64,000 bases of DNA from positions 103,582-167,581 of the forward strand of contig CAXBYW010000002.1 in the NCBI GenBank assembly GCA_963980225.1. Direction: 5' to 3'. The notes beneath the pieces were generated by a model that saw only the letters and a program-made list of their open reading frames with translations, was not told the origin of the DNA and did no database searches. Both the position numbers and the translations under genes were made by a program. This DNA is from an uncultured bacterium (GTDB lineage Bacteria; Patescibacteriota; Microgenomatia; UBA1400; MFAQ01). How positions within the stretch are numbered: the first letter of the stretch is position 1; each line of letters opens with the position of its first letter. Positions 27,249 through 62,531 of this stretch are shown here, one piece after another.

Positions 27249-27253
27249 TAATG

Positions 27254-27326
27254 TCGGGACGACTGGGCTCGAACCAGCGACCTCTGCGTCCCAAACGCAG
27301 CGCTCTAGCCATCTGAGCTACGTCCC
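27254..27326 (-). tRNA. tRNA-Pro (TGG)
   Basis: cgggacgtagctcagatggctagagc, anticodon loop ttTGGga. Confidence 0.85.
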
Positions 27327-27382
27327 GATGTTTTATATTTTACCAGACTTGAGGCAAAATATTTGGTAGAATAGGCTTGTAT

Positions 27383-31314: not shown

Positions 31315-32103
31315 ATGGAAGAGTCTACTCTCGAGCCTTTAACAAAAACTAGATTGACCTCTTTAAGGGGAAAGTGGTCTAAGCCTGATAGGGATAAAGG
31401 ACGCACTTGGGAATTTGATGGCGTGCCTTATTCTCCAGAACATTTCATGAGCTATAACCATGAAATGAGAGAGGGATTGAGTGATTATGACTGTAAAACT
31501 TTTGATGAATTGGTGACTATTTTAGAGAAAAAATTAGGTAGAAAGCCAGATGTTATTGATTTAATGGGAGGGGCGTATTTTTTAAGTGAACCAGGGAATG
31601 TAAATACATTAGTGGCTATAAGAGTGCATGATAAGGACAAGGAGTTTATTGAAGTCGCTAATGAAAAAGATGGTAAGGAGTCTCGTTTGATTAAGAAGGT
31701 TACAGGTGCATCTAATAGGCGTGTTATTGATGCGGATGTGTTGACAACCAAAGGCTGGAAAGATATCGAGAAGGCTGGCTTGCCAAAGGCTGACTTGTTG
31801 GTATGTCGTCCAGTTGGACCGTTTGACGTTAAACATGCTATGGATAGTAGGTGGGATGAACCAGGGGCATATGTAGGATTGTATGCTTCGTTGTTTGGGC
31901 GTATGTTAAGGTTGGTAAATAAAAAAGATGGGGTGATTTTTACTGAAGTTCCAGACATTTATACCGAAAAAGAGGTTAAGAAATTCTTTGTAGGAGTTGA
32001 TGAAAAAGAGGGTTCACAGACTGAGGTGTTCACTGTGCCTGATAAGGATTATCATTGGGGTGGAAGAAAAAGAAGATATGCAGTTATTGAATTTACTAAA
32101 TAG
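31315..32103 (+). CDS. hypothetical protein, possible Rossmann-like fold
   Basis: 262-aa ORF; VIDLMGG weakly resembles SAM-methyltransferase motif I. Confidence 0.45.
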   Translation: MEESTLEPLTKTRLTSLRGKWSKPDRDKGRTWEFDGVPYSPEHFMSYNHEMREGLSDYDCKTFDELVTILEKKLGRKPDVIDLMGGAYFLSEPGNVNTLVAIRVHDKDKEFIEVANEKDGKESRLIKKVTGASNRRVIDADVLTTKGWKDIEKAGLPKADLLVCRPVGPFDVKHAMDSRWDEPGAYVGLYASLFGRMLRLVNKKDGVIFTEVPDIYTEKEVKKFFVGVDEKEGSQTEVFTVPDKDYHWGGRKRRYAVIEFTK

Positions 32104-35333: not shown

Positions 35334-35407
35334 GGGTCTGTAGCTCAGCTGGTTAGAGCGTCTGCCTCTTAAGCAGAATGTCGTGGGTTCGAGTCCCACC
35401 AGACCCA
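35334..35407 (+). tRNA. tRNA-Lys (CTT)
   Basis: gggtctgtagctcagctggttagagc, anticodon loop ctCTTaa. Confidence 0.85.
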
Positions 35408-46499: not shown

Positions 46500-47795
46500 A
46501 TGAAGTTAGATATAAATAAACAGTTTGAAGATGTTTTGGAGGTTTTAGAAAGTACTAACCATCATGTGTTCTTAACGGGTAAAGCAGGAACGGGCAAGTC
46601 TACTCTGCTAGATTTGTTTCGTGAGAAAACCGCTAAGCAAATAGCGGTAGTTGCTCCGACAGGGGTGGCGGCGGTGAATGTAAAGGGTGAGACGATTCAT
46701 TCTTTTTTTGGTTTTAGACCGGGCACCACCTTGGTACAAGCCAAAAGACTGGCTGGTAGGACCAAAAACAAGAAGCTGTATAACTCGCTTGAGACACTGG
46801 TGATTGACGAGATCTCTATGGTCAGGGCAGATCTTTTGGACATGATAAATGTGTTTTTGCAGGCGGTGCGGGGAGATAATAGTGTGTTTGGTGGAGTACA
46901 GGTGGTGATGGTGGGAGACATGCACCAGTTGCCCCCGGTGGTTACTAGAGAGGATGCAGAGAGTTTGGACATGATGTATGACACACCCTATTTCTTCTCG
47001 TCTGAAGCAGTATCTCAGATCGGTCAGGATTTTTTCCAGCCTCTGAAATTTATGGAATTGGAGAAGATTTATAGACAGGAAGATGAGAAGTTTATCTCTC
47101 TTTTAAATGATGTTCGAGAAAACAATATAGATGAAAAAAAACTGTCTAGCTTGCAAGTCTTGGAGGATGGTTGGGAACACATAAAAGACCATGTAATCTT
47201 AACGGCGGTTAACTATGTAGCTGACAAGATTAACCAACAAAGACTAGCTCAGATAAAAAGTGAACCAAAAACATACATGGCCAGTTTATCTGGTGAGTTT
47301 GATGGTAAGAGACTGCCAACCGATGAAAAACTAATTTTAAAGGAAGGTGCGAGAATTATGATGCTTAATAATGATGACCAAGGTCGATGGATAAACGGGA
47401 CCATGGGAACAGTGAGTAAACTGAAACGGTCTGCAGTAGATGTAGATCTTGATGATGGAGAGACTTATGAAGTTACTCCTTTTACTTGGAGCATGTATAA
47501 GTCGGTTTATGATGAGAAGAAGGGGGTGATAAGAAAGGAAGAGAAAGGATCTTTAACTCAGCTACCGATTAGACTGGCTTGGGCAATTACGGTACATAAA
47601 AGCCAGGGTAAGACTTTTGACAAAGTAATTATTGATCTAAGTCGGGGAATGTTTGCTCACGGCCAGGCCTATGTGGCTTTGTCACGATGCACGACCCTAT
47701 CTGGAGTGAAACTTACTCAGCCAATGGAGAAAAGACATGTGATTATGGATGATAGAGTAGTAAAGTTTGTGGAGAGGATAAGAAAAGAGAAATAG
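46500..47795 (+). CDS. Pif1/RecD-family 5'-3' DNA helicase
   Basis: LTGKAGTGKSTLL Walker A, VIDEISMV Walker B, C-terminal SH3/2B region, 431 aa. Confidence 0.7.
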   Translation: MKLDINKQFEDVLEVLESTNHHVFLTGKAGTGKSTLLDLFREKTAKQIAVVAPTGVAAVNVKGETIHSFFGFRPGTTLVQAKRLAGRTKNKKLYNSLETLVIDEISMVRADLLDMINVFLQAVRGDNSVFGGVQVVMVGDMHQLPPVVTREDAESLDMMYDTPYFFSSEAVSQIGQDFFQPLKFMELEKIYRQEDEKFISLLNDVRENNIDEKKLSSLQVLEDGWEHIKDHVILTAVNYVADKINQQRLAQIKSEPKTYMASLSGEFDGKRLPTDEKLILKEGARIMMLNNDDQGRWINGTMGTVSKLKRSAVDVDLDDGETYEVTPFTWSMYKSVYDEKKGVIRKEEKGSLTQLPIRLAWAITVHKSQGKTFDKVIIDLSRGMFAHGQAYVALSRCTTLSGVKLTQPMEKRHVIMDDRVVKFVERIRKEK

Positions 47796-47813
47796 GATAA
47801 AATATAGGCATAA

Positions 47814-47887
47814 GCGGGTGTCGTATACCGGTATTACCTCAGCTTTCCAAGCTGATGAAGGGGGTTCGACTCCCCCCACCCGCTCCA
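47814..47887 (+). tRNA. tRNA-Gly (TCC), unusual D-arm
   Basis: acceptor gcgggtg/cacccgc, anticodon loop ttTCCaa, T-arm ggggttcgactcccc, CCA. Confidence 0.7.
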
Positions 47888-48545
47888 TATCGGACTGCAT
47901 TTCCAAAAGTGCTCTTTTAGTCCGATCTGTGGGCATATTTTTCGGTTCGAGCCGTTGTTTTTTCTCATTCATACTTTTTTCAATCTTCTTGAGATAGATG
48001 AACGCGTTTTTCGCGTCGATTCGGACAATTCTGTCTTTTAAGATAAGGTTCGAGCCAAGAATGCGTAACACCATACGTTTAGCTTCTGTATCCTCTTTAT
48101 GAAATATTTTTGTTACGTTTGAAGCAAAGGCTAAGATCTCTTCCATTGTTTTTGCCCACCCTCCTAGATTATCGGAAGCAATCTGGTTTTTTGTCTGATG
48201 TTCTTCTCGAAGAAGCCGCTCCTTCTCTTTTTGGTAGTCTTCTTCCGTAACTAAATTTTCAATTTTCATTCCGTATAATTGTTTTTTTTCAACAAGAATG
48301 GCATCTAAGCGTTTCGTAAGCTTTGCTTTCTGGTTCCTCTCAAATTCAAATTCACGCGCATTTCTGCGTTTAAGATTTTTCCTGACCCACTGAATAAAAG
48401 AAGGTTTAATTTCTAGGCTATTAATGAAGACATCTACTTGTTTCTTTAATTCAATAGCATTGAGATATTGTTGACCACAAGGTCCCTTTTTTTTGACACA
48501 GCGAGCCCTACAAAAGATGATTTTAGAAGAATTAGACCTAGATCA
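47888..48545 (-). pseudogene. 3' remnant of a large serine recombinase gene (zinc-ribbon/coiled-coil C-terminal region only) abutting tRNA-Gly
   Basis: in-frame hand translation CGQQYLNAIELKKQVDVFINSLEIKPSFIQWVRKNL...MVLRILGSNLILKDRIVRIDAKNAFIYLKKI parallels the C-terminal halves of both intact recombinases in this window; no catalytic domain and no upstream start; ORF tail is antisense of the tRNA. Confidence 0.6.
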
Positions 48546-48833
48546 ATACGTGGACATTCTTATTGGCCCCGAAATAAAGCAAAACAAAGAAGAAACCCAG
48601 GAAACGCCACCAAATGAGGAGCCGGTAGCCCCTGTAGTGCCTTCTAACGACGCTTTGCCACCTCAACCAGTGAATGCATCACCAGTAGCAAATAAGAACA
48701 AAATTCGAGAGCTAATCGGGAAAATTCCAGGTTTGGGGAAAATGCTCAATGCCTGACTTTATTGTTTGATTTATTCTTTCAAGCAAATATAATGAAGTCA
48801 TGAAAGTAGGAAATGTAAGATTTCTGGTATAGC

Positions 48834-50417
48834 ATGGATAAAATAACTCTCTCCCTACAGACAATCTCCTTACTTATCAATTCAGGAGAGTCAAAAAAAG
48901 CTCTTGAGAGATTGGCTGAATTCGAAAGGGAAAACTCTGACGACAAAAGGCTGATATTTTATAAGCCTGGTTTTTTAGTTGATATAGGGAATGATCTCAG
49001 GGACGTAAAAATCATTAGTGAAGGGATTGATATTGGTGAGCTAACGCTAACAAAAACAAAGAATAACAAGACACAGGCTTATCTCCACTACTGTTTGGCA
49101 AATGGGTACACATGTATGTATCAGCTTACGGAAAGAATGGGTGGTGCTGTAGACAGGACTATACCTCAAAGTGAGAATCTCCTCAAAGCAAAACAGCACC
49201 TATTTCAAGCTAGAGATATTAAAATTGATGACCCAAACCTAGAAGTACAATTGTTTGTTAACTTGGGTAACTGCTTAGATACATTCGGCAGAGGCATTGA
49301 AGCAATTAGTGTTTACGATAAAGCATTGCGAATAAATAAAAGCTTTTCCATGGCTATTGCCAATAAAGCCAAGGCTCTGAGAGCATTTGCAGAAATTTCC
49401 GATAAATACAGAGCATCAATATATGTTGAAGCATATCAAGATATAAAATCGGTTATTGATAAACCAGATCTTGTTGCAGTTGGTGGTTTAGGAGCGAAGC
49501 AGGATTTTGAGCGTGAACTTTCTTACATAGAATCCCGTTTCCAAGACAAAACGCTTCTACAGAAAAAGCTTAAACATCCCCCGTACAAAACCGCAAACCT
49601 CTCTGATTTTGAAAAGTTCTATTTAAAATTTTGCAATAAAGAGAAATTGTTCTTAAACTTCCACCTCCATCAGGATCATTGTGAGGCAGCAATCGAGGAT
49701 CCAGTATTTATCAGACTAATAACTAAAGTCGATGATAATGATACTTTTTACAATCTAGCCAAGCACCTCAATCAAATTAAAGAAGACTATGCCGTCGCCA
49801 GGTTGAATCTGGTCCAATCCCAATACAAGCAGAAAGCCTTCAATAACATTAGCAAGAGAACCAGTTATGTATATGCTTTGGACTACTCCCAATTTAATCT
49901 CTATGTTGGTTTATTGAAGTCAGCGTTTAGAGACGCATTCAACATATTAGATAAAATCGCCATATTTATTAATGACTACTATAAACTTGGATTCAATGAA
50001 AATGATATATATTTCGATTCATTAAGGCGAACCGGAGGAACAGCTTCAATCTGGGAAGATAAAGGAGTTATTAGAAAAGAAATTCTCAACTCAGAAAACC
50101 TAAGCCTATATGCCCTTTATGACATTTATCGTGATTTTAAGCAAAATCGATACAGAAGAATTCAGGATATTAGGAATGCTCTTACACACAGGAGGTTAAT
50201 CGTTTTTGACTCGCTAATTACGAGTGTTGCCGATAAAACCGATAAACACAACATTGACTCTGATACTATTCTTCAAGAAACAGTGGATCTGATGCGCTTA
50301 ACCAAGGCAGCAATCATTTACCTGATTAACTTTGTGAACTCTGAGGAAGAAAAGAAGCACAAGAACAGTGATAAACCAATCCTGAATATGTATGCCGATA
50401 CCTCACAGTTCTTGTAA
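48834..50417 (+). CDS. HEPN-domain protein (Abi-like candidate RNase effector)
   Basis: C-terminal R-x4-H motif in DIRNALTHRRL; helical N-terminal region; 527 aa. Confidence 0.5.
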   Translation: MDKITLSLQTISLLINSGESKKALERLAEFERENSDDKRLIFYKPGFLVDIGNDLRDVKIISEGIDIGELTLTKTKNNKTQAYLHYCLANGYTCMYQLTERMGGAVDRTIPQSENLLKAKQHLFQARDIKIDDPNLEVQLFVNLGNCLDTFGRGIEAISVYDKALRINKSFSMAIANKAKALRAFAEISDKYRASIYVEAYQDIKSVIDKPDLVAVGGLGAKQDFERELSYIESRFQDKTLLQKKLKHPPYKTANLSDFEKFYLKFCNKEKLFLNFHLHQDHCEAAIEDPVFIRLITKVDDNDTFYNLAKHLNQIKEDYAVARLNLVQSQYKQKAFNNISKRTSYVYALDYSQFNLYVGLLKSAFRDAFNILDKIAIFINDYYKLGFNENDIYFDSLRRTGGTASIWEDKGVIRKEILNSENLSLYALYDIYRDFKQNRYRRIQDIRNALTHRRLIVFDSLITSVADKTDKHNIDSDTILQETVDLMRLTKAAIIYLINFVNSEEEKKHKNSDKPILNMYADTSQFL

Positions 50418-50455
50418 GACTTTTTCACAGAATTTTTGTATAATTTAGATAACCT

Positions 50456-52549
50456 ATGGAACCAAAGGCCGATCATATGGAGAGAGAAACACCAACAACC
50501 CTACATGCATTGCGTAAAGATAATCAAACTGAAATTCTCGGTCATTTTTCTCCTGACCAACAACAAGATATCCGCCATAGACAACAAATCCTCTCTTCAC
50601 TTGCCTACTTTATCGGTAAAGATTTTCAGATACCTGTTGAATTGAATCAACCCGGTGCAGGCTGGCATTGGGATTTTGGTCAAAACAAAATTCGCATTGA
50701 CCCAAAAGACTTACTGGAGAAAGAAATGGACTATCTCCGCTTTGTTATTTCCCACGAAGGCGGTCATAGGCGAGTTTCTCGAACTGAAGATATTCCCACA
50801 GAAACATGGCGACAACCAGGATTCTCTTTCATGATGAATGCAATTGAGGATCCTAGAACTAATAACTTTGTGGCGGAAGCCTACCCTCGCTTCCGTGATC
50901 AAATGGATATTGCTTACCAAGAAGACTTGGATTTTGAAGATAAAGCTAAAGACAAAGCTCATGAACAGCTAGGCTATACTCCCAGATTTATGCAGGCCGG
51001 GTTTGAATATATTCGCCAGTGGTACGGAGAAACCCAAGGCGAAGAACTAGGTACTTTGAAAGAAGATCTTCCCGAAGAAGTAAGAATCGTGGTTGATCAA
51101 ACTTTAGAAAGTGCTAGAGACTCTTGGTTACGTTATCCCTCAAAACGGGAAGCTGATGAGAGCGAGGAGTTAATCAGAAGATATGCCAACGTCAGCTATG
51201 AAATAAACCGTGACGAAGTCTGGCCGGAATTTCAGAAACTGGTTGAGCAGGATATGCAGGATCAAGAAATGCAAGAGTTTATGAAAGATATGCAGGGTGA
51301 TGGCGATGGTGAAGGACAGCAGGGACTTCCTCAGGAACTTACCGATTCGCTTACGGAAGAAGAACAAAGAGAACTGGAGGAGGCCATAGAGAACGCTCAG
51401 CAGGGAAACCAAGCAGGTCAGGAAGGCGATGGTCAACCAAGAGCTATAGACCTCGATTCTCTTTCCGAAGGGCTGAAACAAAAAATCAAGGACTATATTG
51501 ACTCCTTACCTGAAGATGTCAAACGGGAGCTGGTAGAAAAAGCACAACAGGCTCTACAGGACTTTGAGCGAGAGATAAATGAAGAATTTGAAGGAAAATT
51601 GTCCGATAGCCCTGAGAAGCAAACCCAGCGAGGTGAGATGGAAGGAAAAAAAAGCAAAACCCAACCTGAATCTGGAGATGAAACTCAAGGAGAACAACAA
51701 CCCGAACAGACAGCAGACCAAAAAAGATTTAAAGATCTTATTGAAAAAACTTTGCTTGGTGACGAAAATATTTACGAAGAATACCGACGTGATGTCCTTC
51801 CTCAGATAGACGCTCTTGAAGCTGACTTACGAGAAATATTTGTAGCCAGACGAGCACAAAAATGGCAGACTGGTTATAAGTCAGGAAAGCGCATTGACAT
51901 TAAAAGAAGAATGCAAGAAAAAGCTTTGGGTATCTCTGCTGTAGAAAGTCGAGCTTGGCAAAAACGAGAAATACCCCAGGAGAAAGATTATGCAATCGGT
52001 CTTTTGGTTGATTTGTCAGGCTCTATGAGGGGTTCAAAAATACGAGAAACATTTAAAGCAACCATTGTATTGGCCGAAGTACTCAACAGGCTCTCAATAA
52101 ATACTGAAATTTTAGGTTTTAACGACAGGTTATATGAATATCAGCCATTTGGGTACGATATGGGTCGGGAGGTACGAGAACATATGGGTGGAATGTTACA
52201 AGAAGTAGACACAGAAGCTGCTTCTTATAACGATGATGGCTGGGCAGTTCAACAAGCCTCGAAAAGGCTTGCGCGCCAAAAAGCAGCTGAAAAATTCCTG
52301 TTTGTCCTTTCTGACGGCTTACCTGAAGAATCAAGAGCGCACTCCGGTTCTCAATATGAACTTGGCAAAATGGTTAGTCAAATAATGGAAGAGACTGATC
52401 AAAAACTAATAGGGCTAGGAATTGGTCCTGGGACAGATCACGTTGAACGCTATTATCCTAACAGCGTAGCAAACATTGGAGTGCGTGAAATGTCAGAAAA
52501 ATTAGCTGACATTATCAGGGAAGTAATCGCCAATTATGACACTTTCTAG
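50456..52549 (+). CDS. HExxH metallopeptidase-like N-terminal domain plus C-terminal von Willebrand A domain
   Basis: VISHEGGHRRV (HExxH); acidic Q/E-rich linker; MIDAS DLSGSMRG; 697 aa. Confidence 0.7.
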   Translation: MEPKADHMERETPTTLHALRKDNQTEILGHFSPDQQQDIRHRQQILSSLAYFIGKDFQIPVELNQPGAGWHWDFGQNKIRIDPKDLLEKEMDYLRFVISHEGGHRRVSRTEDIPTETWRQPGFSFMMNAIEDPRTNNFVAEAYPRFRDQMDIAYQEDLDFEDKAKDKAHEQLGYTPRFMQAGFEYIRQWYGETQGEELGTLKEDLPEEVRIVVDQTLESARDSWLRYPSKREADESEELIRRYANVSYEINRDEVWPEFQKLVEQDMQDQEMQEFMKDMQGDGDGEGQQGLPQELTDSLTEEEQRELEEAIENAQQGNQAGQEGDGQPRAIDLDSLSEGLKQKIKDYIDSLPEDVKRELVEKAQQALQDFEREINEEFEGKLSDSPEKQTQRGEMEGKKSKTQPESGDETQGEQQPEQTADQKRFKDLIEKTLLGDENIYEEYRRDVLPQIDALEADLREIFVARRAQKWQTGYKSGKRIDIKRRMQEKALGISAVESRAWQKREIPQEKDYAIGLLVDLSGSMRGSKIRETFKATIVLAEVLNRLSINTEILGFNDRLYEYQPFGYDMGREVREHMGGMLQEVDTEAASYNDDGWAVQQASKRLARQKAAEKFLFVLSDGLPEESRAHSGSQYELGKMVSQIMEETDQKLIGLGIGPGTDHVERYYPNSVANIGVREMSEKLADIIREVIANYDTF

Positions 52550-52566
52550 TATACTATGCATAACTT

Positions 52567-52977
52567 ATGAAAAATACACTTGATGATTTCTTAAAATACG
52601 TAATTTCTCAAAAAGAAGTCTCTTTAATTCTTGCGAAAGATGATGAGGAACTCAAAAAGCTAACAGAAAAACTAGAAAAAGCTGGTTTTAGACAGGCGGT
52701 CGATACGTCTGATTTGTTTAAACAAATCACTAAAGCTTCGAAAACGTTTGTTGCAGTTAAGGATAGTTTATCCAAAGACCTATACGATTTTGCCGTTCAA
52801 TACCCCACTGGCCAGGTAGAAATCTATGACAAATTCAATTTAAAATCTCAGACAGTAATACCAACCTATAAAGACGTTTCTGTTGTTTACGCATTAACTA
52901 AAGCTACCCTTAAAAAGACTCAAGAATCTGGATTTAGGATCCTTGAGTTAATGGGTATAACTTACCAAAGTAAATAA
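52567..52977 (+). CDS. hypothetical protein between the vWA and AAA+ genes
   Basis: 136-aa ORF. Confidence 0.45.
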   Translation: MKNTLDDFLKYVISQKEVSLILAKDDEELKKLTEKLEKAGFRQAVDTSDLFKQITKASKTFVAVKDSLSKDLYDFAVQYPTGQVEIYDKFNLKSQTVIPTYKDVSVVYALTKATLKKTQESGFRILELMGITYQSK

Positions 52978-52982
52978 AACAT

Positions 52983-54926
52983 ATGCCAGACGAAACCATG
53001 GAAAGACATGAATTCACACCCACACCTGAACATCCTGTTGAGGAAACACAAGACACAATTGCATATTTAGGTGTTCGTTTACCAAAAGCCCAGAATGCTG
53101 AGGGTCATTTTGTTCCTCGCCGGGAACAGTATGCCGATTATATTAACGACAGATTCTCGCTAGGTTTACAAAAAGACATAGCGGTCAGTTTTCTACAAGG
53201 AGATCCTATATTAGTTGAAGGAGGAACCAGTATTGGTAAAACCACTACAGTGAGAAAAATGGCAGCAGATCTTGGTTGGGAAGTCCATTATGCAAACTTG
53301 AATGGCGCTACTGATGTTGAAGACTTAATGGGAAGGTATATTCCCAATCCAGACAAACGAGGTTCTGATGATACTGAGTATGTTTTTGCTGACGGAAAGG
53401 TTACTTCAGGCTTAAGACAGGAAGACGGTAAAGTTAAAGTGATTATTCTGGATGAATTCAACTCAGCCGCTCCAAACATTGTTATCCGCCTTCATGAGGT
53501 TTTAGATGCAATTGACCGCGGTGAATCGGTTGTACTTTCAGAAGACGCTTCAGAATCCATCCCCGTCAGCAAAAAGACAACTAAAGTAGTGGCTCTCATG
53601 AATCCCCCAGGAAAGGGATATTTTGGTCGAGAACCACTTGATCCTGCTCAATTAAGGCGTTGGGTGTATCTTAAAGCTCCTTCAGACCTGCCTGAAGACA
53701 CATTTTCTTATTCAACAGATGCCTTGTTTGCCCTTGCTTCTCAAGATGAAGAAGTTCCTCCTGAAGCATTTTTAGTGTCACAAGACTATGCTCTCCTACC
53801 CGAACAGTTGCAAGAAATCCCAGGAATTGATTCCATCCTTGGAAAATATAAGGAATTTCATAAGGCTGCTAAAGAATTAGTTAAGGGAAGAAGAATAGCT
53901 GCCGATCAACCCCAACCTTTTACTTATGACGACAGAATGGAACCACGAAGGGTTAGAGATTTCATCCTAAGATTTTATAACGGCGATATCAATGAAACAT
54001 TCCAGGGTGCTCTGCGTTATTACTATTCAAACAAACTTGATTCCGATGTTGACAGACAAAAATTAGAAGAACTGATCCGACACGTCGAGTATATGGCGCC
54101 TCAAAATGTTTCCTCAAGGAGAGGTCTTGACCGAACTTCCACAGAGGCTCCAGAAAGACAAAGAGAAACGGTAGAGATATCTCATGAGCAAGACGCTTGG
54201 AGTGATGTGTTGGGTACGAACATAGAAGTTCCACCACTTCCTTCGGAAGTAACCCCAGAGGTACAAAGAAACCTAGAACGCCTTGGTTTTGAACTAAGAT
54301 TTATTCCCAAGCTTGACATCGGAACCTTGGATGAACTCCAGCGAAATGGCCAAGAAGAATTTTTGAACGATATACAACGTCGTTATCCCAATTGGCGAAG
54401 GTATGAAACTCTCTCCGGAGAGGAACGGGAAGATCACAGTGTGGGAAGAAACTTAGAAGAATGGTTTTGGGGATTGGCTAAAGATGGCAGAATGGAGTTT
54501 CCTCAATTGCCTGGTACTTGGGTAGCAGTGGAAACCATGCCTAAACCGTCTTACGGTGATTCCTATGAAAAAACTCTCGCAGGTGAAGCCTTGGGTTTAG
54601 AAGACCGTTTCAATGTTTCTTGGGATGATGCTCATCAAGCAATCGAAACTCATAAACGTGAGCTCTTAGATGACATGGGATTAGCCACTTCTGTGGATGT
54701 GCGGATGTTAGAAGCTGTTGAGTGGAATTTGCTGGCTAATCGTGAAGGCTGGGGTACAACTGACACTTATGAATGGACAAATACTGAAGCACGTGCTGGC
54801 GGCGATCCTCGCCGTGTCGTTGTTGGTGCCTCCGACGATGGTGGGGCCGCTAGCGCCCCTTGGGGTCACCCGACGTTCTCGGGTGGCCGCGTTGGTTTCC
54901 GTGTCGCTGTAGTTCTTGGTACTTGA
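52983..54926 (+). CDS. MoxR-like AAA+ ATPase with C-terminal C-type-lectin/FGE-sulfatase-like domain carrying the DGR variable region
   Basis: Walker A GGTSIGKTT, Walker B VIILDEFN, sensor ALMNPP, DPAQLRRW; C-terminus RRVVVGASDDGG..W.HPT.S...VGFRVAVVL resembles the FGE/CLec terminal motif. Confidence 0.8.
   Translation: MPDETMERHEFTPTPEHPVEETQDTIAYLGVRLPKAQNAEGHFVPRREQYADYINDRFSLGLQKDIAVSFLQGDPILVEGGTSIGKTTTVRKMAADLGWEVHYANLNGATDVEDLMGRYIPNPDKRGSDDTEYVFADGKVTSGLRQEDGKVKVIILDEFNSAAPNIVIRLHEVLDAIDRGESVVLSEDASESIPVSKKTTKVVALMNPPGKGYFGREPLDPAQLRRWVYLKAPSDLPEDTFSYSTDALFALASQDEEVPPEAFLVSQDYALLPEQLQEIPGIDSILGKYKEFHKAAKELVKGRRIAADQPQPFTYDDRMEPRRVRDFILRFYNGDINETFQGALRYYYSNKLDSDVDRQKLEELIRHVEYMAPQNVSSRRGLDRTSTEAPERQRETVEISHEQDAWSDVLGTNIEVPPLPSEVTPEVQRNLERLGFELRFIPKLDIGTLDELQRNGQEEFLNDIQRRYPNWRRYETLSGEEREDHSVGRNLEEWFWGLAKDGRMEFPQLPGTWVAVETMPKPSYGDSYEKTLAGEALGLEDRFNVSWDDAHQAIETHKRELLDDMGLATSVDVRMLEAVEWNLLANREGWGTTDTYEWTNTEARAGGDPRRVVVGASDDGGAASAPWGHPTFSGGRVGFRVAVVLGT
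54791..54918 (+). repeat. DGR variable repeat (VR), last ~42 codons of the AAA+ gene
   Basis: ~125 nt near-identical to 55386-55512; 22 internal mismatches, all at positions that are A in the downstream copy. Confidence 0.85.
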
Positions 54927-55385: not shown

Positions 55386-55512
55386 AACGTGATGACGGCG
55401 ATCCTAACCGTGTCATTGTTGGTAACTCCGACAATGGTGGAGCCGCTAACGCCAATTGGAATCACCCGACGAACTCGAATGACAACGTTGGTTTCCGTGT
55501 CGCTGTAGTCTT
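55386..55512 (+). repeat. DGR template repeat (TR)
   Basis: Asn-codon (AAC/AAT)-rich copy of the VR; adenines correspond to all variable VR positions. Confidence 0.85.
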
Positions 55513-55555: not shown

Positions 55556-55942
55556 TCAAGAACGATAGGTAGATGCTTTAATCCAGCCACCAAGCATCTT
55601 GCCTATCTCTTGAAGTTGAGACTCAAGAAGGAGGTATTTCTTGTTATCAAGAATCTTTAAATCTTTACAACACCTTATGAGAACTTTTAATACATCAAGC
55701 TTTATGCTCGCCCCTTGTAAAGTGGGAACTTTTTCTGATTTTGATAATTGGCTGGCAGTAATAATATCTTCAATCAATCCCAAAATACCATTTTCAATTT
55801 TTTGTCCAATGGTATATCGATCTTTTTTAGGAAAATGAGATACAAGTTGATAGAAAAACTTATAAAGCTCGTATGTTTTCTGAAAGATCGGAATGTCTAA
55901 ATTAAGCCTGCCTGATTCAAAATCAGTATGAGAATTTGCCAT
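55556..55942 (-). CDS. avd: four-helix-bundle protein (23S rRNA IVS protein family), Avd-like DGR accessory candidate
   Basis: 128 aa, FQKTYELYKFFYQLVSHFPKKDRYTIGQKI typical of this family; sits between TR and RT. Confidence 0.65.
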   Translation of the reverse strand: MANSHTDFESGRLNLDIPIFQKTYELYKFFYQLVSHFPKKDRYTIGQKIENGILGLIEDIITASQLSKSEKVPTLQGASIKLDVLKVLIRCCKDLKILDNKKYLLLESQLQEIGKMLGGWIKASTYRS

Positions 55943-56506
55943 AATAATTATAATGAAATTATAACACTTGAAAATCTATTTCTGGCATGGGAAGGGTTTG
56001 CTAAAGGCAAGAGATCGAAAGCTGATGTAATAAATTTTGAACGAAACTTAGAAGATAATATTTTCAGCCTACACAAAGAGCTTAAGGATAAAGTATATCA
56101 ACACGGAAACTATCAGGAGTTTTATGTTCGAGATCCCAAAATACGCCATATCCACAAAGCTTGCGTCAAAGATAGGGTTGTTCATCATTTAACTAGTAAA
56201 ATACTGGAACAGGTTTTTGATCCAACTTTTTATCCCCACTCCTACTCTTGTCGCAAAGGAAAAGGTACACACAAAGCTGTCCAGGCATTTACAAAGATGG
56301 CTCAGGGCGAGCTGGATGAAGCTAATAAAGCCAAGGGGCGTGCGCTTATTGAAACCCAGGAGTATAAGGGTAAATTTAAAAACTGCCAGAAAGACAAGGG
56401 TAAATTTGATCCAACACCACAGATTATTCTCTCTTTGGCTATTCAGTACATTGGAAACATTATTAGAAGAAAAGGAGGTGATCAATATGAACAACATTTA
56501 CCCTGA
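55928..56506 (+). pseudogene. reverse transcriptase, N-terminal fingers/palm region only (domains 1-2); truncated
   Basis: LENLFLAWEGFAKGKRSK..F.....L...L....Y.......YVRDPKIRHIHKACVKDRVVHHL...FDPTFYPHSYSCRKGKGTHKAV matches RT motifs 1-2; no motif 3-7 or YxDD in any downstream frame. Confidence 0.65.
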
Positions 56507-56750
56507 ATGGAAGAAGGTGTTGTGGAGATTCGGCCGCATTTTCCTGTCAGCATTTCTATTTACTGGCTCACTAGTGCTTATCAACACACAGCCAGAAGCA
56601 CTGACTAGCTGGGACAAATTTTTCAATATGCTGGTTTTACCCTTCCTCTTGTCCGGAGGAATAGCAGGTATCAATGCTGTCGGTAAGCTTTTGCGTGACA
56701 CGTTTGGATCGGAAGATAAAAATAGTCTAGTCGATAAATTACCATTCTAA
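56487..56750 (+). CDS. small two-TM membrane protein (holin-like size)
   Basis: strong RBS aaaggagg 8 nt upstream of ATG; MNNIYPEWKKVLWRFGRIFLSAFLFTGSLVL, 87 aa; within the 56217 track ORF. Confidence 0.45.
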   Translation: MNNIYPEWKKVLWRFGRIFLSAFLFTGSLVLINTQPEALTSWDKFFNMLVLPFLLSGGIAGINAVGKLLRDTFGSEDKNSLVDKLPF

Positions 56751-57007
56751 TGCCCATGAAAGATGATGAATCGGTAAACACCATAAAAATGTTTGAACGA
56801 GTAGCCAAACTTGAAGAAAGAGTTGATGGTGGCTTTGGGTTTATTGGCAAGGAACTAAAGGAGATCAAAGAAAACCACCTGCACCAATTACAAGCAGACG
56901 TGAGCGACCTGAAAATAAAAGTAAATACGATTACGGTAAAGGTTGGTGTGGTGGTTGCGGTTGCAACCATATTGATCGACTTAGCTTTTCGCTTTCTGTT
57001 TCGGTGA
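56750..57007 (+). CDS. hypothetical coiled-coil protein with C-terminal TM
   Basis: 85-aa ORF. Confidence 0.35.
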   Translation: MPMKDDESVNTIKMFERVAKLEERVDGGFGFIGKELKEIKENHLHQLQADVSDLKIKVNTITVKVGVVVAVATILIDLAFRFLFR

Positions 57008-57340
57008 AGATGTCTTTTTCTTGGCTTTTTTTTCAGTGATTTTTTTGTTGCCACTGAAAATTAGATTACTAAGGTCTTCAGTGAAGCCTTTAAAGGAATT
57101 TGCATTTAAAACATGGAAGTGACCAGCCTCGGGGCTTCCAGTAAAAATAAGAGTATCTCCAGAACTGATATTATGCGCTTTTCTCAATTTAGCTGGAATT
57201 ACTATCTGTCCTTTGGAACTTACTGGTGCGGTACCGAAAACAGTCATCTTAACTGATTGTTTCTTTTTTTTAGTCTTACTTTTCATATTCTTTTTAAAAC
57301 TATAATTTGAATTGGATCTCTTCGTGTGAGACAAAATCAT
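56981..57340 (-). CDS. AbrB/MazE/SpoVT-family DNA-binding protein with lysine-rich tail (antitoxin-like)
   Basis: GQIVIPAKLRKAHNISSGDTL swapped-hairpin motif; true start probably the internal Met (MTVFG). Confidence 0.5.
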   Translation of the reverse strand: MILSHTKRSNSNYSFKKNMKSKTKKKKQSVKMTVFGTAPVSSKGQIVIPAKLRKAHNISSGDTLIFTGSPEAGHFHVLNANSFKGFTEDLSNLIFSGNKKITEKKAKKKTSSPKQKAKS

Positions 57341-57682: not shown

Positions 57683-58165
57683 ATGTATCAACAAATCTTT
57701 GAACTCCATGCGGATTTACTTAAGGCTTTGTCCCACCCCAAACGACTGGAGGTAGTTAACCTACTTCGAGATAAAGGTTTAAATGTAGGAGAGATGCAGG
57801 AAATGTTAGGGTTACCCCAGGCAAACTTGAGTCAACACTTAATGGTTTTACGTGAAGCAGGAGTGGTAGAGACAGAAAAAAAGGGCAAGGAAGTGTTTTA
57901 TAAACTGACTAGTAAGAATTTTGTTAAGGCCAGTGATTTACTTAGAGAAGTACTGATTAAGATACACAAAGATGATGACTTGGCGGATGAGTTAACTATA
58001 AAAATGAAGGATCTGGTGCCGGTAGTGGCGGATCCGGTTTGCAAGATGCGGGTATCCCCTAAGACGGCGGCCAGAGGATTTAAGTATGAAGGACAGACCT
58101 ACTATTTCTGTGCAAGTGGATGTTTGGAGAGTTTTAAAAAGAAGCCTAAAAAATATATTAATTAA
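57683..58165 (+). CDS. ArsR/SmtB-family metalloregulator fused to C-terminal TRASH/YHS metal-binding domain
   Basis: HTH LKALSHPKRLEVVNLL...NLSQHL; C-terminal DPVCKMRV...YYFCASGC. Confidence 0.75.
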   Translation: MYQQIFELHADLLKALSHPKRLEVVNLLRDKGLNVGEMQEMLGLPQANLSQHLMVLREAGVVETEKKGKEVFYKLTSKNFVKASDLLREVLIKIHKDDDLADELTIKMKDLVPVVADPVCKMRVSPKTAARGFKYEGQTYYFCASGCLESFKKKPKKYIN

Positions 58166-58175
58166 ATAATAAAAA

Positions 58176-58661
58176 ATGGATAAAAAAATAATAGCAGGTA
58201 TCGTGTTTGGAGTTTTGGTCTTGTTGGGAGGAACTGTCTTTTTGGCTACAAAAGTAAGTTCTCCTGCACAAATAGAGATGGTTCAAGGTGCTATGGTGGA
58301 AGTTGGTGAAACCGCATGGGAGTGGGGAGATATAGGAATAAGTGATGGTAAGGTAGAAAAAGAGTTTGAGATAAGGAACACCGGTTCTGAAACATTAAAA
58401 CTTTTTAATGTTGCTACTTCTTGTATGTGTACTACTGCAATGTTTGTAGATGATGAAAGTCGTATTTTTGGAATGCACACCAAGTCTGGCTATGCAAAAG
58501 AAGTCCCGGCAGGAGAAAGTGTTAAGGTCAGAGTGGTTTTTGATCCACTGTTTCATGGCCCAGATGGAGTTGGTCCTATTAGTCGTCAGGTTACCATGAT
58601 GACTAACGATTCTGAAAATAGCCAGTTAAGTTTTATGCTTACCGCTACGGTTAGAAAATAA
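58176..58661 (+). CDS. DUF1573-like membrane-anchored beta-sandwich protein
   Basis: N-terminal TM, CMC motif, 161 aa; copper-cluster context. Confidence 0.5.
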   Translation: MDKKIIAGIVFGVLVLLGGTVFLATKVSSPAQIEMVQGAMVEVGETAWEWGDIGISDGKVEKEFEIRNTGSETLKLFNVATSCMCTTAMFVDDESRIFGMHTKSGYAKEVPAGESVKVRVVFDPLFHGPDGVGPISRQVTMMTNDSENSQLSFMLTATVRK

Positions 58662-58682
58662 TAATTATTAATATATTAAAGA

Positions 58683-59615
58683 ATGAATAAAAAAATAAAG
58701 AAAGTAATGCCAGTATTTATCATATTAATAGCTGTCTTAGGTGTGTCTATTGTCTGGGCAAGTTTGTTTGACGTTAAAATAAAAGCAAGTGACGGCTTAG
58801 TATCTTTGGTAAATCGAATTTACCCTACACCCACTCCCCTACCAGAACCAAGTATAGAAAACTTAGAAGTAGCAGTAGTACCAGAAGAAGGTTATGAAGT
58901 GAAGATCAACTGGGGTGATACGGGTAAGAAGCTGGTGAAGGCTGGTGGGATTGATATGGGTAAATTTGAGAAGAATTACTCGACTCCTAACTACGCGGAA
59001 CTTATGTCTTACTTAACTGAGAGTAAGGATAAGGGAATTAATATAAACAAAGAAAGCTCGTATTTTTGGGTAAACACTCTGTGGGCCCTGGGGTTAACGC
59101 AAAATTCCAAGGTGCTTTCTGAAGGGATTATGGGTACGGAGTATAAAGATAGACTGGCTAATTTTGCTTCTACTGGAGGCTGGACCTTGGGATCTAAGGC
59201 GGCAGTAGACCTTTATAGTTCTAGCAATATTCTTGATTTGGATGAGGCAGAGCAAGAGATGGTGAGTGAGATCACTTCTAATATATATAGACCTTGTTGT
59301 GGTAATCCCACCTCTTTCCCTGACTGTAACCACGGTATGGCTATTTTAGGATTAGTTGAGTTAATGGTAGACCAAGGTTTTAGTGAGGATGAGATTTACA
59401 AAGCCTCGCTGATGTTTAATTCGTACTGGTTCCCCCAGACATATATTGATCTGGCCTATTACTTCCAGACCGAAGAAAATACGTTGTGGGAAGAGTTAGA
59501 TGCTAAAGAGCTCTTGTCAGCTCAGTATAGTTCTGCACCCGGTTATCAGGCAATTAAAGAAAAAATAGGTGATGTTCCGGGAACGGAATCTAGAGGTGGA
59601 AGTTGTGGAGCTTAA
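58683..59615 (+). CDS. membrane-anchored Cys-rich hypothetical protein
   Basis: N-terminal TM, CCGNPTSFPDCNHG, 310 aa. Confidence 0.45.
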   Translation: MNKKIKKVMPVFIILIAVLGVSIVWASLFDVKIKASDGLVSLVNRIYPTPTPLPEPSIENLEVAVVPEEGYEVKINWGDTGKKLVKAGGIDMGKFEKNYSTPNYAELMSYLTESKDKGININKESSYFWVNTLWALGLTQNSKVLSEGIMGTEYKDRLANFASTGGWTLGSKAAVDLYSSSNILDLDEAEQEMVSEITSNIYRPCCGNPTSFPDCNHGMAILGLVELMVDQGFSEDEIYKASLMFNSYWFPQTYIDLAYYFQTEENTLWEELDAKELLSAQYSSAPGYQAIKEKIGDVPGTESRGGSCGA

Positions 59616-59630
59616 AAAATATAAAAAATT

Positions 59631-60344
59631 ATGAAAAACAAAATACTGTTGGTTTTAGGGTTAGTAGGGATACTAGGAGTTTGGTCTTTGAAAAAAACTA
59701 GTAAACTTCAAGACTCGTCTCCTAAGGTTGTTTCTTTGCAGTCACAAGACTTTGATGAATTGGTCGCTAGCAAAGATGTGTTCTTATTGGATGTTCACAC
59801 ACCAGAACAAAAACATATTGCAGGAACCGATGCTTTCATTCCCTATGATGACATAAAGGGAGGGTTGGGGCAGTTACCTGAGGATAAAAGTACCCCGATC
59901 TTGGTTTACTGTAGATCTGGTTCTATGAGCAAAAGCGCAAGTAAGGATTTGGTGGAGTTAGGTTATAGCGAGGTTTATGACTTGGTGGGTGGGATTAATG
60001 CATATAGGGAAACCCATGTTGGAGTAACTTTAATGCCAGAGACAGTTGAATTGGGAGAAGTGATTTACAAAGATGGAGCAAGTACAGAGTTTGTTTTGAC
60101 TAACAATACTCCCAATGAACTAAAAATAGAGAGAGTTACTGGGTCGTGTGCTTGCACCCAGCCAAGTATAGAAAAGGATGTCTTGGCTCCGTATGAGTCT
60201 ACTATCATTAAGGTTAAATTTGAACCTTCTGTTCATAAGGATGACTCGGATATAGGAGACTTAGTAAGACTGGTGTTTGTAGACACAGATAATGAGAATT
60301 TTGAGCACCTGGTAGGTAAGATTACGGCAAAAGTAGTAAAGTAA
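59631..60344 (+). CDS. rhodanese-domain protein with DUF1573-like C-terminal domain
   Basis: active-site loop LVYCRSGSMS, C-terminal CAC motif, N-terminal TM. Confidence 0.65.
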   Translation: MKNKILLVLGLVGILGVWSLKKTSKLQDSSPKVVSLQSQDFDELVASKDVFLLDVHTPEQKHIAGTDAFIPYDDIKGGLGQLPEDKSTPILVYCRSGSMSKSASKDLVELGYSEVYDLVGGINAYRETHVGVTLMPETVELGEVIYKDGASTEFVLTNNTPNELKIERVTGSCACTQPSIEKDVLAPYESTIIKVKFEPSVHKDDSDIGDLVRLVFVDTDNENFEHLVGKITAKVVK

Positions 60345-60350
60345 TATTAG

Positions 60351-62531
60351 ATGATAAAAAAAAGTTTTTCGATTGTTGGAATGCACTGTGCTGGTTGTGC
60401 GTCGACTTTAACTAAAGCTATTGGTAAGGTTAAGGGTGTGAGTGAGGTACAGGTAACCTACGCCACTGATAAGGCTATTATTGCTTATGATGAGAAGAAG
60501 ATAGACTGGGAGGCTTTAAAAAAAGCGGTAGAAAGTGTAGGGAGCTACAAAATTGTTTTGGATGAGGAAAGAAAACATGAAGATCATGGAAACAACAAAA
60601 GACACGATCACGGTCAGATGTTGGCTGAGGACAAGTTCAAGACGTTACGGTATAAGGTGATTGTTTCTTTAGGTATATTCGCTATATTGTTTATTGGTTC
60701 TTTATTGGGTTGGATGTCGATGCAAGTAGCTTTTGTTTTGACAACAATAGTAATGTTTTATTCTGGAAGTGAGTTTTTTGTTAATGCCTGGGCTGGACTT
60801 TTAAATAAATCAGCTAATATGGATACCTTGGTGGCTATGGGGACGGGTTCTGCTTATGTCTACTCTGCCCTATCTGGAGTAATGTACTTTGAGACCGCTG
60901 TGGCGATTGTAGGACTTGTTTTGCTGGGGAGATATCTAGAGGCCAAAGCGAAGCTAAAGGCGGGTCAAGATATAAAAGAACTGCTTAAACTGCAGGCAAA
61001 AGAGGCAGTGTTGCTAGTTAACGGTAAGGAAGTTATGGTGGCGGTAGAAAACTTGAAATTAGGTGATGTTTTAGTGATAAAGCCAGGTAGTAAAGTAGCA
61101 GTAGATGGAGTAGTAATAGAAGGAAGTTCTTACATAGACGAGTCTCTGGTAACGGGAGAGAGTAAGCCAGTCAAAAAGAAAAAAGGAGACAAGCTTATTG
61201 GAGGTACGATTAACTTTAAAGGAAGGTTAATAATGAAGGTAACCCAAGTAGGAGCAGACACGGTCCTATCTAAGATTGCCACCATGGTCCAGGAAGCACA
61301 GAACAGTCAGGCTCCGATTCAGAAGTTGGCGGACAAGGTTTCTTCTATATTTGTACCTGTGGTGATACTCTTGGCGCTTAGCTCTTTTATGGTTTGGTAC
61401 TTTGTTTTGGGAGCTAGTTTTAGTACGGCCTTGACCTTTTTTATTACGGTGTTAATTATTTCTTGTCCATGTGCATTGGGTCTAGCCACTCCTATTGCTA
61501 TTATGGTGGGTACCGGAAGAGGAGCTTCTTTGGGGATCTTGATTAAGACGGCAGAGAAATTGCAGATAGCGGGTAAGGTTGATACTTTGGTGTTTGACAA
61601 GACAGGGACATTGACTAAAGGTAACTTTGTGGTAACTAATGTACTGGGAGTAAGTCCAGACTGGAGCAGAAAGAAATTACTTAAGCTAGCAGCTGGAATA
61701 GAAATAGGATCTGAACATCCGGTAGCAATGGCTATTTTAGAAGAGTCCGGAAAGATGAAGTTAGACAGACTAACGGGCTTTCAGGCCATAGAAGGAATGG
61801 GTGTAGAGGGAAAGTTATCGGACAAGAAAGTGGTGGTAGGAAATAAAAAATTGATGGATAAAAAAAGATACGTAATATCTAAAGACTTACACCTTAAGGG
61901 TGGGAAAATGATGAGTGAAGGAAAGACTGTGGTCTATGTGGGATTTGAAGGAGAAGTGGTTGGGGTGATGGCTTTAGCAGATGAGGCTAAGGAAGAAGCC
62001 CAGAAGACGGTTAAAGACCTGCAAATGAAAGACATTGATGTGTGGATGATGACTGGAGATAATGAAGAAACAGCTAAGGGAGTAGCAAAAAATTTGGGAA
62101 TTAAAAATGTATTGTTTGAGGTTTTACCTAAAGATAAAGTGAGTGAGATAAAGAAACTTCAGGATAAAGGAAAGCTTGTAGCAATGGTGGGAGATGGGGT
62201 GAATGACGCTCCGGCTTTGGCAAAGGCAGATATAGGGATGGCTATGGCAACTGGTACAGAGGTAGCTATGGAGACAGCGGATATATCTTTGGTTAGAGGT
62301 AAAGTAGAGCTAGTGAACCAAGCACTTCTACTGTCTAAGAAGACCATGAGGGTGATTTCCCAGAACTTGTTTTGGGCATTTGGGTACAACGTCCTACTTA
62401 TTCCGGTAGCTGCCGGGCTATTTGCACCTTTAGGAGTTAAGGTCTCCCCTATTTTGGCATCTGGAGCGATGGCGTTTTCTTCATTGTCTGTTGTCTTGAA
62501 TTCCTTGAGATTAAGAAGAATTAAGTTGTAG
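60351..62531 (+). CDS. copA: copper-translocating P1B-type ATPase
   Basis: N-terminal HMA GMHCAGC, CPC, DKTGTLT, GDGVNDAP; 726 aa. Confidence 0.9.
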   Translation: MIKKSFSIVGMHCAGCASTLTKAIGKVKGVSEVQVTYATDKAIIAYDEKKIDWEALKKAVESVGSYKIVLDEERKHEDHGNNKRHDHGQMLAEDKFKTLRYKVIVSLGIFAILFIGSLLGWMSMQVAFVLTTIVMFYSGSEFFVNAWAGLLNKSANMDTLVAMGTGSAYVYSALSGVMYFETAVAIVGLVLLGRYLEAKAKLKAGQDIKELLKLQAKEAVLLVNGKEVMVAVENLKLGDVLVIKPGSKVAVDGVVIEGSSYIDESLVTGESKPVKKKKGDKLIGGTINFKGRLIMKVTQVGADTVLSKIATMVQEAQNSQAPIQKLADKVSSIFVPVVILLALSSFMVWYFVLGASFSTALTFFITVLIISCPCALGLATPIAIMVGTGRGASLGILIKTAEKLQIAGKVDTLVFDKTGTLTKGNFVVTNVLGVSPDWSRKKLLKLAAGIEIGSEHPVAMAILEESGKMKLDRLTGFQAIEGMGVEGKLSDKKVVVGNKKLMDKKRYVISKDLHLKGGKMMSEGKTVVYVGFEGEVVGVMALADEAKEEAQKTVKDLQMKDIDVWMMTGDNEETAKGVAKNLGIKNVLFEVLPKDKVSEIKKLQDKGKLVAMVGDGVNDAPALAKADIGMAMATGTEVAMETADISLVRGKVELVNQALLLSKKTMRVISQNLFWAFGYNVLLIPVAAGLFAPLGVKVSPILASGAMAFSSLSVVLNSLRLRRIKL

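Follow-up and report, generated by a model that had tools for sequence, protein, structure and literature searches.

How does a diversity-generating retroelement (DGR) whose variable repeat (VR) has plainly been diversified from its template repeat (TR) come to be accompanied by a reverse transcriptase (RT) gene that stops after the second RT motif? This question is raised by a 64,000-nucleotide stretch of DNA (hereafter, the window; positions 103,582 to 167,581 of contig CAXBYW010000002.1, assembly GCA_963980225.1) from an uncultured bacterium of the Patescibacteria (candidate phyla radiation, CPR). A 192-amino acid (aa) open reading frame (ORF) at 55928–56506 (plus strand) begins in this window as an RT and ends as part of a different protein. 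Our analyses make it very likely that the window carries a temperate SU10-like prophage of a Patescibacteria bacterium in a state of decay, in which a deletion of ~18.9 kb cut the RT gene. The truncated RT is thus a pseudogene-type remnant of ordinary prophage decay, and not a new kind of enzyme or biology.

Extent of the Reverse Transcriptase Remnant

Judged by sequence similarity, residues 1–126 of the ORF are the genuine N-terminus of a DGR-type RT. This stump (55928–56305, plus strand) corresponds to codons 1–126 of a 345-codon DGR RT, comprising its N-terminal extension and motifs 1 and 2, and the ORF displays KGKRSK at aa 26–31, DRVVHHL at aa 82–88, and SYSCRKGKGTHKAV at aa 105–118. Pfam was silent on the ORF (no match to RVT_1, PF00078, at E ≤ 0.1), and PHROGs, the PADLOC RT models, the PDB, and homolog searches were therefore needed to identify the RT N-terminus. 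Residues 1–123 matched PHROG 1423 (‘Reverse transcriptase’, E = 8.6e-41), and the ORF matched the PADLOC RT model (E = 2.6e-19). A 328-aa reverse transcriptase in the PDB (8ub7_A) aligned to residues 6–118 only (E = 1.6e-16); the 345-aa RT of an intact relative aligned with the same structure end to end (E = 2.7e-41). Homologs of the ORF numbered 158 in the databases searched, and the complete members are 329–345 aa long and carry PF00078.

Similarity to full-length relatives ends at nucleotide 56305, or residue 126 (tblastn of the relatives against the window). The break point falls after SYSCRKGKGTHKAVQAF (motif 2) and before LKCDIKKFF, the motif 3/A segment with the first catalytic Asp, and the IGNLTSQLFANIY block and YADD of intact relatives also align beyond it. 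To locate any remaining RT sequence, every stop-to-stop frame of the full 64 kb, in six frames, was searched with filters off (--max) using a profile built from 87 full-length relatives. The profile returned one significant match (55916–56503, profile positions 2–121 of 327, E = 4e-60) and no second RT piece in the window, the next best match reaching an E-value of 0.027 (9.8 bits). Profile positions 122–327, which span motifs 3–7, were not found in any frame of the window, and a broader DGR-RT profile that included DGR RTs from viral contigs with 29% identity likewise recovered no further RT piece in six frames of the whole window. None of the Asp of motif 3, [ILV]GxxxSQ, and YxDD was detected next to the cassette within the window. 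As translated, the chimeric ORF has no catalytic aspartate and is incapable of polymerization. A preliminary description of this locus had reported that the RT ends after motif 2 with motifs 3–7 missing up to position 57000, and had proposed a six-frame RT profile search; the homology is indeed confined to residues 1–126, and the absence extends to the whole window, where the search matched the stump alone.

The identical ORF and junction are present in contig L007 (ERZ4200977, a SPAdes-style NODE_ contig; 99.94% identity over 3.3 kb) and contig L008 (ERZ27237547, a k141_ contig; 99.96% over 2.8 kb), and the sole difference in the ORF among the assemblies that share the junction is K81R. That the junction is common to independent assemblies, with no 3′ RT sequence in any frame, indicates that the truncation is real and neither a frameshift nor an assembly collapse. 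The preliminary description had held that a full-length RT recovered by correcting an error would overturn its view; with the assemblies in agreement, no such RT emerged. A 3′ part displaced or split off within the window by an intron, an insertion, or a frameshift was also considered and rejected, as tblastn with six full-length or related proteins and the two profiles yielded nothing.

Origin of the Tail and the Deletion Junction

The C-terminal part of the ORF (56306–56506, plus strand), which had been taken for unrelated sequence, derives from the 3′ end (~66 codons) of a phage M23-peptidase/coiled-coil gene and continues the RT stump in the native frame of that gene (tblastn). The closest partial homolog of the ORF is a 287-aa protein (P0002) that has the same C-terminal tail (aa 208–287; 67.5% identity, E = 1e-30, tblastn) and 125 extra residues between its RT part and the tail. 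A search with the non-RT part of P0002 led to a family of 355–360-aa proteins, including a member in Candidatus Daviesbacteria GW2011_GWB1_39_5, that share an N-terminal Peptidase_M23 domain (PF01551), a coiled coil, and the same C-terminus. The window tail matches aa 279–360 of the M23 protein of L062 (58.5% identity, E = 1e-26, tblastn). In P0123, the PF01551 region sits in the N-terminal ~150 residues; the metallopeptidase domain is not in the window remnant, which keeps only the non-catalytic C-terminal ~66 residues. The M23-derived tail also contains an imperfect tandem duplication (CCAGGAGTATAAGGGTAAATTT / CCAGAAAGACAAGGGTAAATTT, 30 nt apart, window 56356–56407) that results in a repeated ‘KGKF’, and complete M23 homologs are two residues shorter at this place.

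The junction (56291–56306, plus strand) joins RT codon ~126 to M23 codon ~298 of a 360-aa reference. Identity to the RT of L005 fades at ~56290–56303, and identity to the M23 remnant of another decayed relative, L001, starts at 56306. The sequence GGCGAG(C) occurs at the matching place on both parental sides of the junction, and the deletions in this element may have been mediated by microhomology.

The gene order downstream of the junction is that of an intact M23 locus. The 3′ neighbors of the M23 gene in intact relatives encode an 87-aa protein, an 83–85-aa coiled-coil/transmembrane protein, and, on the other strand, a MazE/AbrB-type protein, which is the order at 56487–57340 in the window. 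The 87-aa protein (56487–56750, plus strand) has two hydrophobic segments, is encoded directly after M23 in L009–L013 and L089, and matches PHROG 5967, of unknown function, weakly; its position and topology suggest that it is holin-like. An 85-aa coiled-coil protein with a C-terminal hydrophobic segment follows (56750–57007, plus strand), with 83–85-aa counterparts in L001, L009, L013, and L089 and no family match in Pfam or PHROGs. The last conserved gene (56981–57340, minus strand) encodes a small DNA-binding protein of the MazE/AbrB type (SpoVT-AbrB; PF04014, E = 8.3e-8) and occupies the same place in L001, L009–L013, and L089. The membrane-protein gene at 56487 had been suggested to have arrived from elsewhere and displaced the 3′ part of the RT. 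It is instead the native downstream neighbor of M23, which the ~18.9-kb deletion would have brought to the stump.

Gene Order in Intact Relatives

The distance between the two halves of the chimera can be read from an IMG/VR contig (IMGVR_UViG_3300037483_001825) in which a complete RT gene ends at position 43938 and a complete M23 gene starts at 61312 in the same orientation, 17.4 kb apart. The intervening genes encode SU10_MCP, Amidase_2, adaptor, and giant LPD38 proteins. Immediately 5′ of the complete M23 gene, relatives encode an LPD38-containing protein of 1678–1900 aa, proteins of 356, ~80–100, 441, and 481 aa, and an SU10-type adaptor. Projected on the IMG/VR reference, the window is without the segment from RT codon 127 to M23 codon 297, or ~18.9 kb. 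Insertion of a mobile element into the RT was rejected as a source of the tail, because the tail is the 3′ end of a gene that intact relatives carry 17.4 kb beyond the RT and in matching orientation.

Three relatives with a complete RT, namely L005 (an NCBI metagenome-assembled genome, MAG), L074 (a 295-kb MAG contig), and L014 (IMG/VR), share the order vWA, 135-aa protein, target, TR, avd (minus strand), and RT. The RT in each is followed by an HTH_3 gene (minus strand) and then by phage genes including those for SU10_MCP, an Amidase_2 protein, and an SU10 adaptor. The 651-aa portal protein of L014 (SU10_portal, PF23899, E = 5.7e-10) is encoded upstream of the HEPN gene in IMGVR_UViG_3300037483_001825, and in L114 the portal, HEPN, vWA, target, TR, avd, RT, helix-turn-helix (HTH), and major capsid protein (MCP) genes all lie within one 16.5-kb stretch. 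The left half of this intact order is also found in L005 and L074, and the right half in L009–L013 and L089. The whole cassette, from HEPN to HTH, lies between the SU10-type portal and major capsid genes of a temperate phage, present in Patescibacteria contigs, in L014 (1–14824) and L114 (1–14816), as well as in L090, L095, and L098.

Collectively, the intact phage carries, in order, the portal gene, a small ORF, HEPN, vWA, the 135-aa protein, the AAA_5 target with its VR, TR, avd (minus strand), RT, and an HTH repressor-like gene; its right end, ~17 kb past the HTH gene, comprises the M23/coiled-coil gene, two small membrane-protein genes, and the MazE-like gene. This gene order places the DGR cassette inside the phage, with structural genes on both sides. 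Wu et al. (2018; PMC5758913) relied on flanking structural genes as their conservative criterion for a link to phage.

The history of the window may then be described by two events. A single illegitimate deletion of ~18.9 kb, from RT codon ~126 to M23 codon ~298, would have removed RT motifs 3–7 together with all capsid, adaptor, and tail genes, leaving the in-frame 192-aa chimeric ORF as a by-product. A second, left-hand deletion would have extended from the 5′ half of a serine recombinase gene through the portal gene, sparing the last 88 portal codons.

Past Activity of the Retroelement

The VR (54791–54913, plus strand) is a 123-nt repeat that is 83% identical to the TR (55387–55509, plus strand). 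All 21 mismatches fall at TR adenines, of which there are 29 among the 123 nt (chance ~7e-14), and comprise 13 A to G, 6 A to C, and 2 A to T changes; the 94 non-A positions show no difference. Mismatches directed purely at adenines indicate that the element certainly carried out mutagenic homing in the past. The preliminary description likewise regarded the VR as diversified from the TR, and envisaged either an element that was active and later decayed or an intact RT supplied in trans; the evidence favors the former.

The VR lies within the last 45 codons of the target gene (52983–54926, plus strand), which encodes a 647-aa AAA_5 (MoxR/midasin-like) ATPase (PF07728, E = 2.7e-13). For a C-type-lectin/FGE-like fold, no Pfam match was obtained over the C-terminal domain of the target at E ≤ 0.1. 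The avd gene (55556–55942, minus strand) is intact and encodes a 128-aa protein that matches Pfam bAvd (PF22296) above the gathering threshold (E = 2.6e-24), as well as PHROG 3206 (‘Avd protein of DGR’, E = 1e-27). The avd (minus strand) and RT (plus strand) genes are divergent, with start regions that overlap by 15 nt (55928–55942), an arrangement kept in all close relatives. Given this overlap, the promoter of each gene must sit within the coding sequence of the other.

The TR is 96% identical to that of L001, as compared to ~83% for the surrounding DNA, and the VR is identical in the three consensus assemblies that carry the junction of the window. An intact TR and avd, together with zero non-A differences, are consistent with recent loss of the RT, and equally with complementation by an RT elsewhere. 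We infer that the DGR is now silent and that its VR allele is frozen.

Independent Decay in Related Elements

Roughly 10 informative close relatives keep a 345-aa RT, so that the truncated state is the exception; where decay has occurred, it has taken different routes. The L001–L004 lineage is represented by contigs of 3.4–541 kb (with one of 898 kb in the collection) that are identical across several samples. In L001, a TTTGAT match marks the right junction, where the RT breaks off at residue ~98 and M23 resumes at residue 150, and at the left junction a complete recombinase is joined directly to HEPN residue 112. L001 keeps 429 nt of M23 that are absent from the window, and the window keeps 84 nt of RT that are absent from L001, so neither arrangement can have come from the other. 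Since each lineage retains, at both junctions, DNA missing from its counterpart, four separate deletions from intact prophages make up the simplest history.

The repeats lead to a compatible view of timing. The TRs of the window and L001 differ at five sites, and each VR tracks its own TR at non-A sites with zero non-A mismatches, which indicates that homing, and hence a working RT, lasted past the split of the lineages. A single ancestral deletion shared by the window and L001 was rejected as less parsimonious in view of the mutually retained DNA and of homing after the TRs diverged.

Other relatives have lost the RT in further ways. In L070, L107, and L110, the RT stops at residue ~119 next to a host CoA-ligase gene, and avd has an internal deletion of ~190 nt. 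The 3′ flank of the VR in these contigs (L070 5560–5930) is of the TR type (GTAGTCTTATCTC...) and the ~600-bp spacer between VR and TR is gone, which indicates homologous recombination between VR and TR. At least two frameshifts interrupt the RT of L099 (6534–7600), of which the first, near residue 125, is close to the break point of the window, and the RT of L075 (196–2202) has a frameshift near residue 288, with the MazE-like gene ~0.8 kb later and no phage module. In L094 and L101, host genes directly follow the target, with no TR, avd, or RT. We do not claim a hotspot of breakage after motif 2 (residues 98, ~119, and 126, and ~125 in L099), as the searches were seeded with the RT N-terminus; P0003, P0024, P0026, and L075 are broken elsewhere in the RT.

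Left End of the Element and Retained Operon

The left end of the element is marked by a tRNA-Gly(TCC) gene (47814–47887, plus strand; ARAGORN), the probable integration site. Window positions 47813–48353 match L001 1495–2042 (blastn), and the L001 element also adjoins tRNA-Gly(TCC). Adjacent to the tRNA gene, a large serine recombinase (47890–48533, minus strand) is reduced to its C-terminal half and lacks the catalytic N-terminal ~305 aa: residues 306–548 of the 574-aa L001 recombinase (PF00239 and PF13408) match window 48533–47772 (51% identity, E = 1e-74, tblastn). The ORF at 47697–48269 had no Pfam match. This remnant abuts the last ~88 codons of a phage portal gene (48487–48750, plus strand), identified by a match to residues 563–650 of the 651-aa L014 protein (62.5% identity, E = 9e-28, tblastn).

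In L001 (1413–1570), the called recombinase ORF extends across tRNA-Pro and tRNA-Gly genes of the opposite strand, such that its last ~50 residues are translated tRNA, and this accounts for a spurious tblastn match at the tRNA-Pro gene of the window (27253–27330). The window also encodes a second large serine recombinase (32096–33775, minus strand), which is full-length (559 aa) and 33% identical to that of L001. It lies near a pair of tRNA-Lys and tRNA-Arg genes (35334–35489) and may mark another integrated element.

The retained block begins with an intact gene for a 527-aa HEPN_LA2681-domain protein (48834–50417, plus strand; PF18733, E = 3.2e-32), whose counterpart in intact relatives, encoded between portal and vWA, is 80% identical. 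Next come genes for a 697-aa vWA protein of the CobT_C type (50456–52549, plus strand; PF11775, E = 3.5e-17), located 5′ of the target in all relatives, and for a conserved 136-aa protein of unknown function (52567–52977, plus strand) located between vWA and target. Counterparts of the latter in L001, L005, L014, and L070 are 135–137 aa long, and no family match was found in Pfam or PHROGs. No tblastn match to the window was obtained with the MCP, the 554-aa Amidase_2 protein, or the 1678-aa (LPD38) protein. The SU10-like structural set is represented in the window by the 88 portal codons only; capsid, adaptor, and tail genes are present in L014/L062, L005, L074, and L114.

The operon as a whole (48834–54926; HEPN_LA2681, CobT_C-type vWA, 136-aa protein, and AAA_5) is intact in at least three independently decayed elements. 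Values of dN/dS between the window and L001 were 0.03–0.06 for this operon, 0.02–0.11 for all retained genes, and 0.11 for the M23 tail. However, dS between the two is saturated, and these ratios thus mostly describe the period before the deletions and are uninformative on the time since the deletions or on constraint on the chimera. PADLOC identified no defense system in the operon, only a marginal mad8 match. The HEPN–vWA–136-aa–AAA block appears to have been retained for a benefit that it provides to the host.

To the right of the element, DNA similarity to L001 stops at 57626, and ordinary host genes lie beyond. Those at 57683–62531 encode an ArsR-family regulator carrying a YHS domain, a pair of DUF1573 proteins of which one has a rhodanese domain, and a heavy-metal P-type ATPase; this metal-handling cluster looks like ordinary host content.

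Alternative Explanations

One alternative is an assembly or sequencing artifact (a chimeric join, a collapsed repeat, or a frameshift) in a genome that really encodes a full RT. MAG-type data can hold chimeric joins, and the coverage of the L007 contig is low (~2.9x by its name). Yet the same junction was recovered at 99.9% identity in three assemblies that differ in sample and assembler, the lack of 3′ RT sequence in every frame leaves no frameshift to correct, and the sequence shared at the junction (≤7 nt) is too short for a collapse. The different junction of L001, moreover, recurs identically in contigs of 11–541 kb from several samples, and we regard an artifact as exceedingly improbable. 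Somewhat less remote, and still very unlikely, is that the fusion of RT residues 1–126 to the C-terminal 66 aa of M23, or its translation, is kept as functional. The fusion might bind RNA or Avd, or translation might couple the overlapping 87-aa gene to the RT promoter. Two lineages have fused the genes at different junctions, both in frame, with the M23 tail in its native frame; the 87-aa gene, starting at 56487, begins before the stop codon (56504–56506), as it does at the end of an intact M23 gene; neither half has stops or frameshifts; and dN/dS of the tail between the window and L001 is low (0.11). Two in-frame events, however, have a chance probability of ~1 in 9, which is not significant, and with dS saturated the ratio mostly reflects pre-deletion time. 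Without palm and thumb, the RT fragment would probably not fold by itself, and it matches no domain family, the fusion proteins of the window and L001 differ by 125 middle residues, and other decayed relatives end the stump differently, without an M23 tail.

A further alternative concerns activity rather than structure: the cassette may still be active, its TR RNA and Avd being used by an intact DGR RT elsewhere in the genome or introduced by superinfection with a related phage. The intact TR and avd, VR differences restricted to adenines with none at the 94 non-A positions, and a TR conserved at 96% between lineages with ~83% identical flanks are all as this would predict, and related phages with a 76–83% identical RT and a ~88–91% identical Avd do exist. 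The clean repeats and the TR conservation are, however, equally expected after recent loss of the RT. Two profiles found no second RT in the 64-kb window, the VR does not vary among the three assemblies that carry the junction, and the decay is general, extending to the recombinase, the portal, and all structural genes here and to TR and avd in relatives. We consider supply of an RT in trans unlikely. The preferred reading, decay of an SU10-like prophage by deletion, has points that weigh against it as well. The closest intact reference is ~76–83% identical and no intact ancestor of the lineage of the window is at hand, so that the junction is placed to within ~15 nt, and the case for GGCGAG(C) microhomology is suggestive rather than conclusive. 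The two independent fusions both preserve the reading frame (chance ~1 in 9), with neither half bearing a stop or frameshift; an undamaged, in-frame chimera may point to a recent event or to constraint of some kind on the ORF. The combination of intact TR and avd with no non-A VR differences is a pattern that an active element served by an RT elsewhere would also show. Lastly, that the recombinase and portal belonged to one phage is deduced from their adjacency in two decayed copies, an intact copy with both not having been seen.

Comparison with Known Systems and Implications

The element resembles the DGR of Bordetella phage BPP-1 (mtd, avd, TR, and brt) in being phage-borne, in having a C-terminal VR in its target, in showing adenine-specific mismatches to the TR, and in encoding Avd. 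The RT of intact relatives shares IGxLTSQLFAN and Y(A/M)DD blocks with 8ub7_A, which we take to be the bRT enzyme of BPP-1, the database entry saying only ‘Reverse transcriptase’. Unlike in BPP-1, the RT in the window keeps only residues equivalent to bRT 7–119, avd is on the opposite strand and between TR and RT, and the role of target falls to an AAA_5 ATPase, paired with a vWA protein, rather than to a tail-fiber receptor-binding protein.

Defective (cryptic) prophages form by internal deletions and keep selected cargo genes. The element in the window shares with them a tRNA site on the integrase side, loss of the catalytic half of the recombinase and of the structural genes, chimeric ORFs at the junctions, and a cargo operon under purifying selection. 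It differs from cryptic prophages generally in that the cargo is a DGR target operon with an orphaned TR and avd. The stripped element might even represent a phage-derived vWA/MoxR-type system that has been domesticated by repeated selection, its hypervariable domain either frozen at an advantageous allele or re-diversified only through an RT supplied in trans by a related intact phage. That two lineages arrived at nearly the same architecture by four different deletions, with a third keeping the core, would be the signature of such selection; we hold the proposal to be doubtful.

Among CPR bacteria, a ‘CPR set’ of DGRs with UVR4 Midasin/AAA targets has been described by authors who leave the fold of AAA/Midasin-type targets open and state that next to nothing is known of any link to phage (Wu et al., 2018; PMC5758913), and DGR clade 2 has been characterized as cellular almost without exception (Roux et al., 2021; PMC8144416). 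The element studied here resembles these CPR DGRs (PMC8144416, PMC5758913) in that its RT family occurs in Patescibacteria MAGs, its target is an AAA protein of the midasin/dynein type, and its VR/TR differences are A-specific. Unlike the surveyed CPR DGRs, the intact cassette is flanked by phage portal and capsid genes, and the copy in the window is without a working RT. Roux et al. (2021; PMC8144416) also raised the idea that a DGR may persist while the rest of a provirus decays. The situation here is partly the reverse, with the target operon kept while the DGR machinery decays together with the provirus.

These observations indicate that at least some ‘cellular’ CPR DGRs are prophage cargo or remnants, and for this sub-family the association with phage is direct. 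The relatives form a decay series that runs from intact elements, through those with a frameshifted RT, an RT fused to a lysis gene by either of two different deletions, and a recombined VR/TR with deleted avd, to elements with no TR, avd, or RT. The series illustrates how a DGR is lost while purifying selection maintains its target operon, a pattern relevant both for interpreting orphan VR-like domains and for scoring DGR ‘activity’ from the presence of an RT N-terminus.

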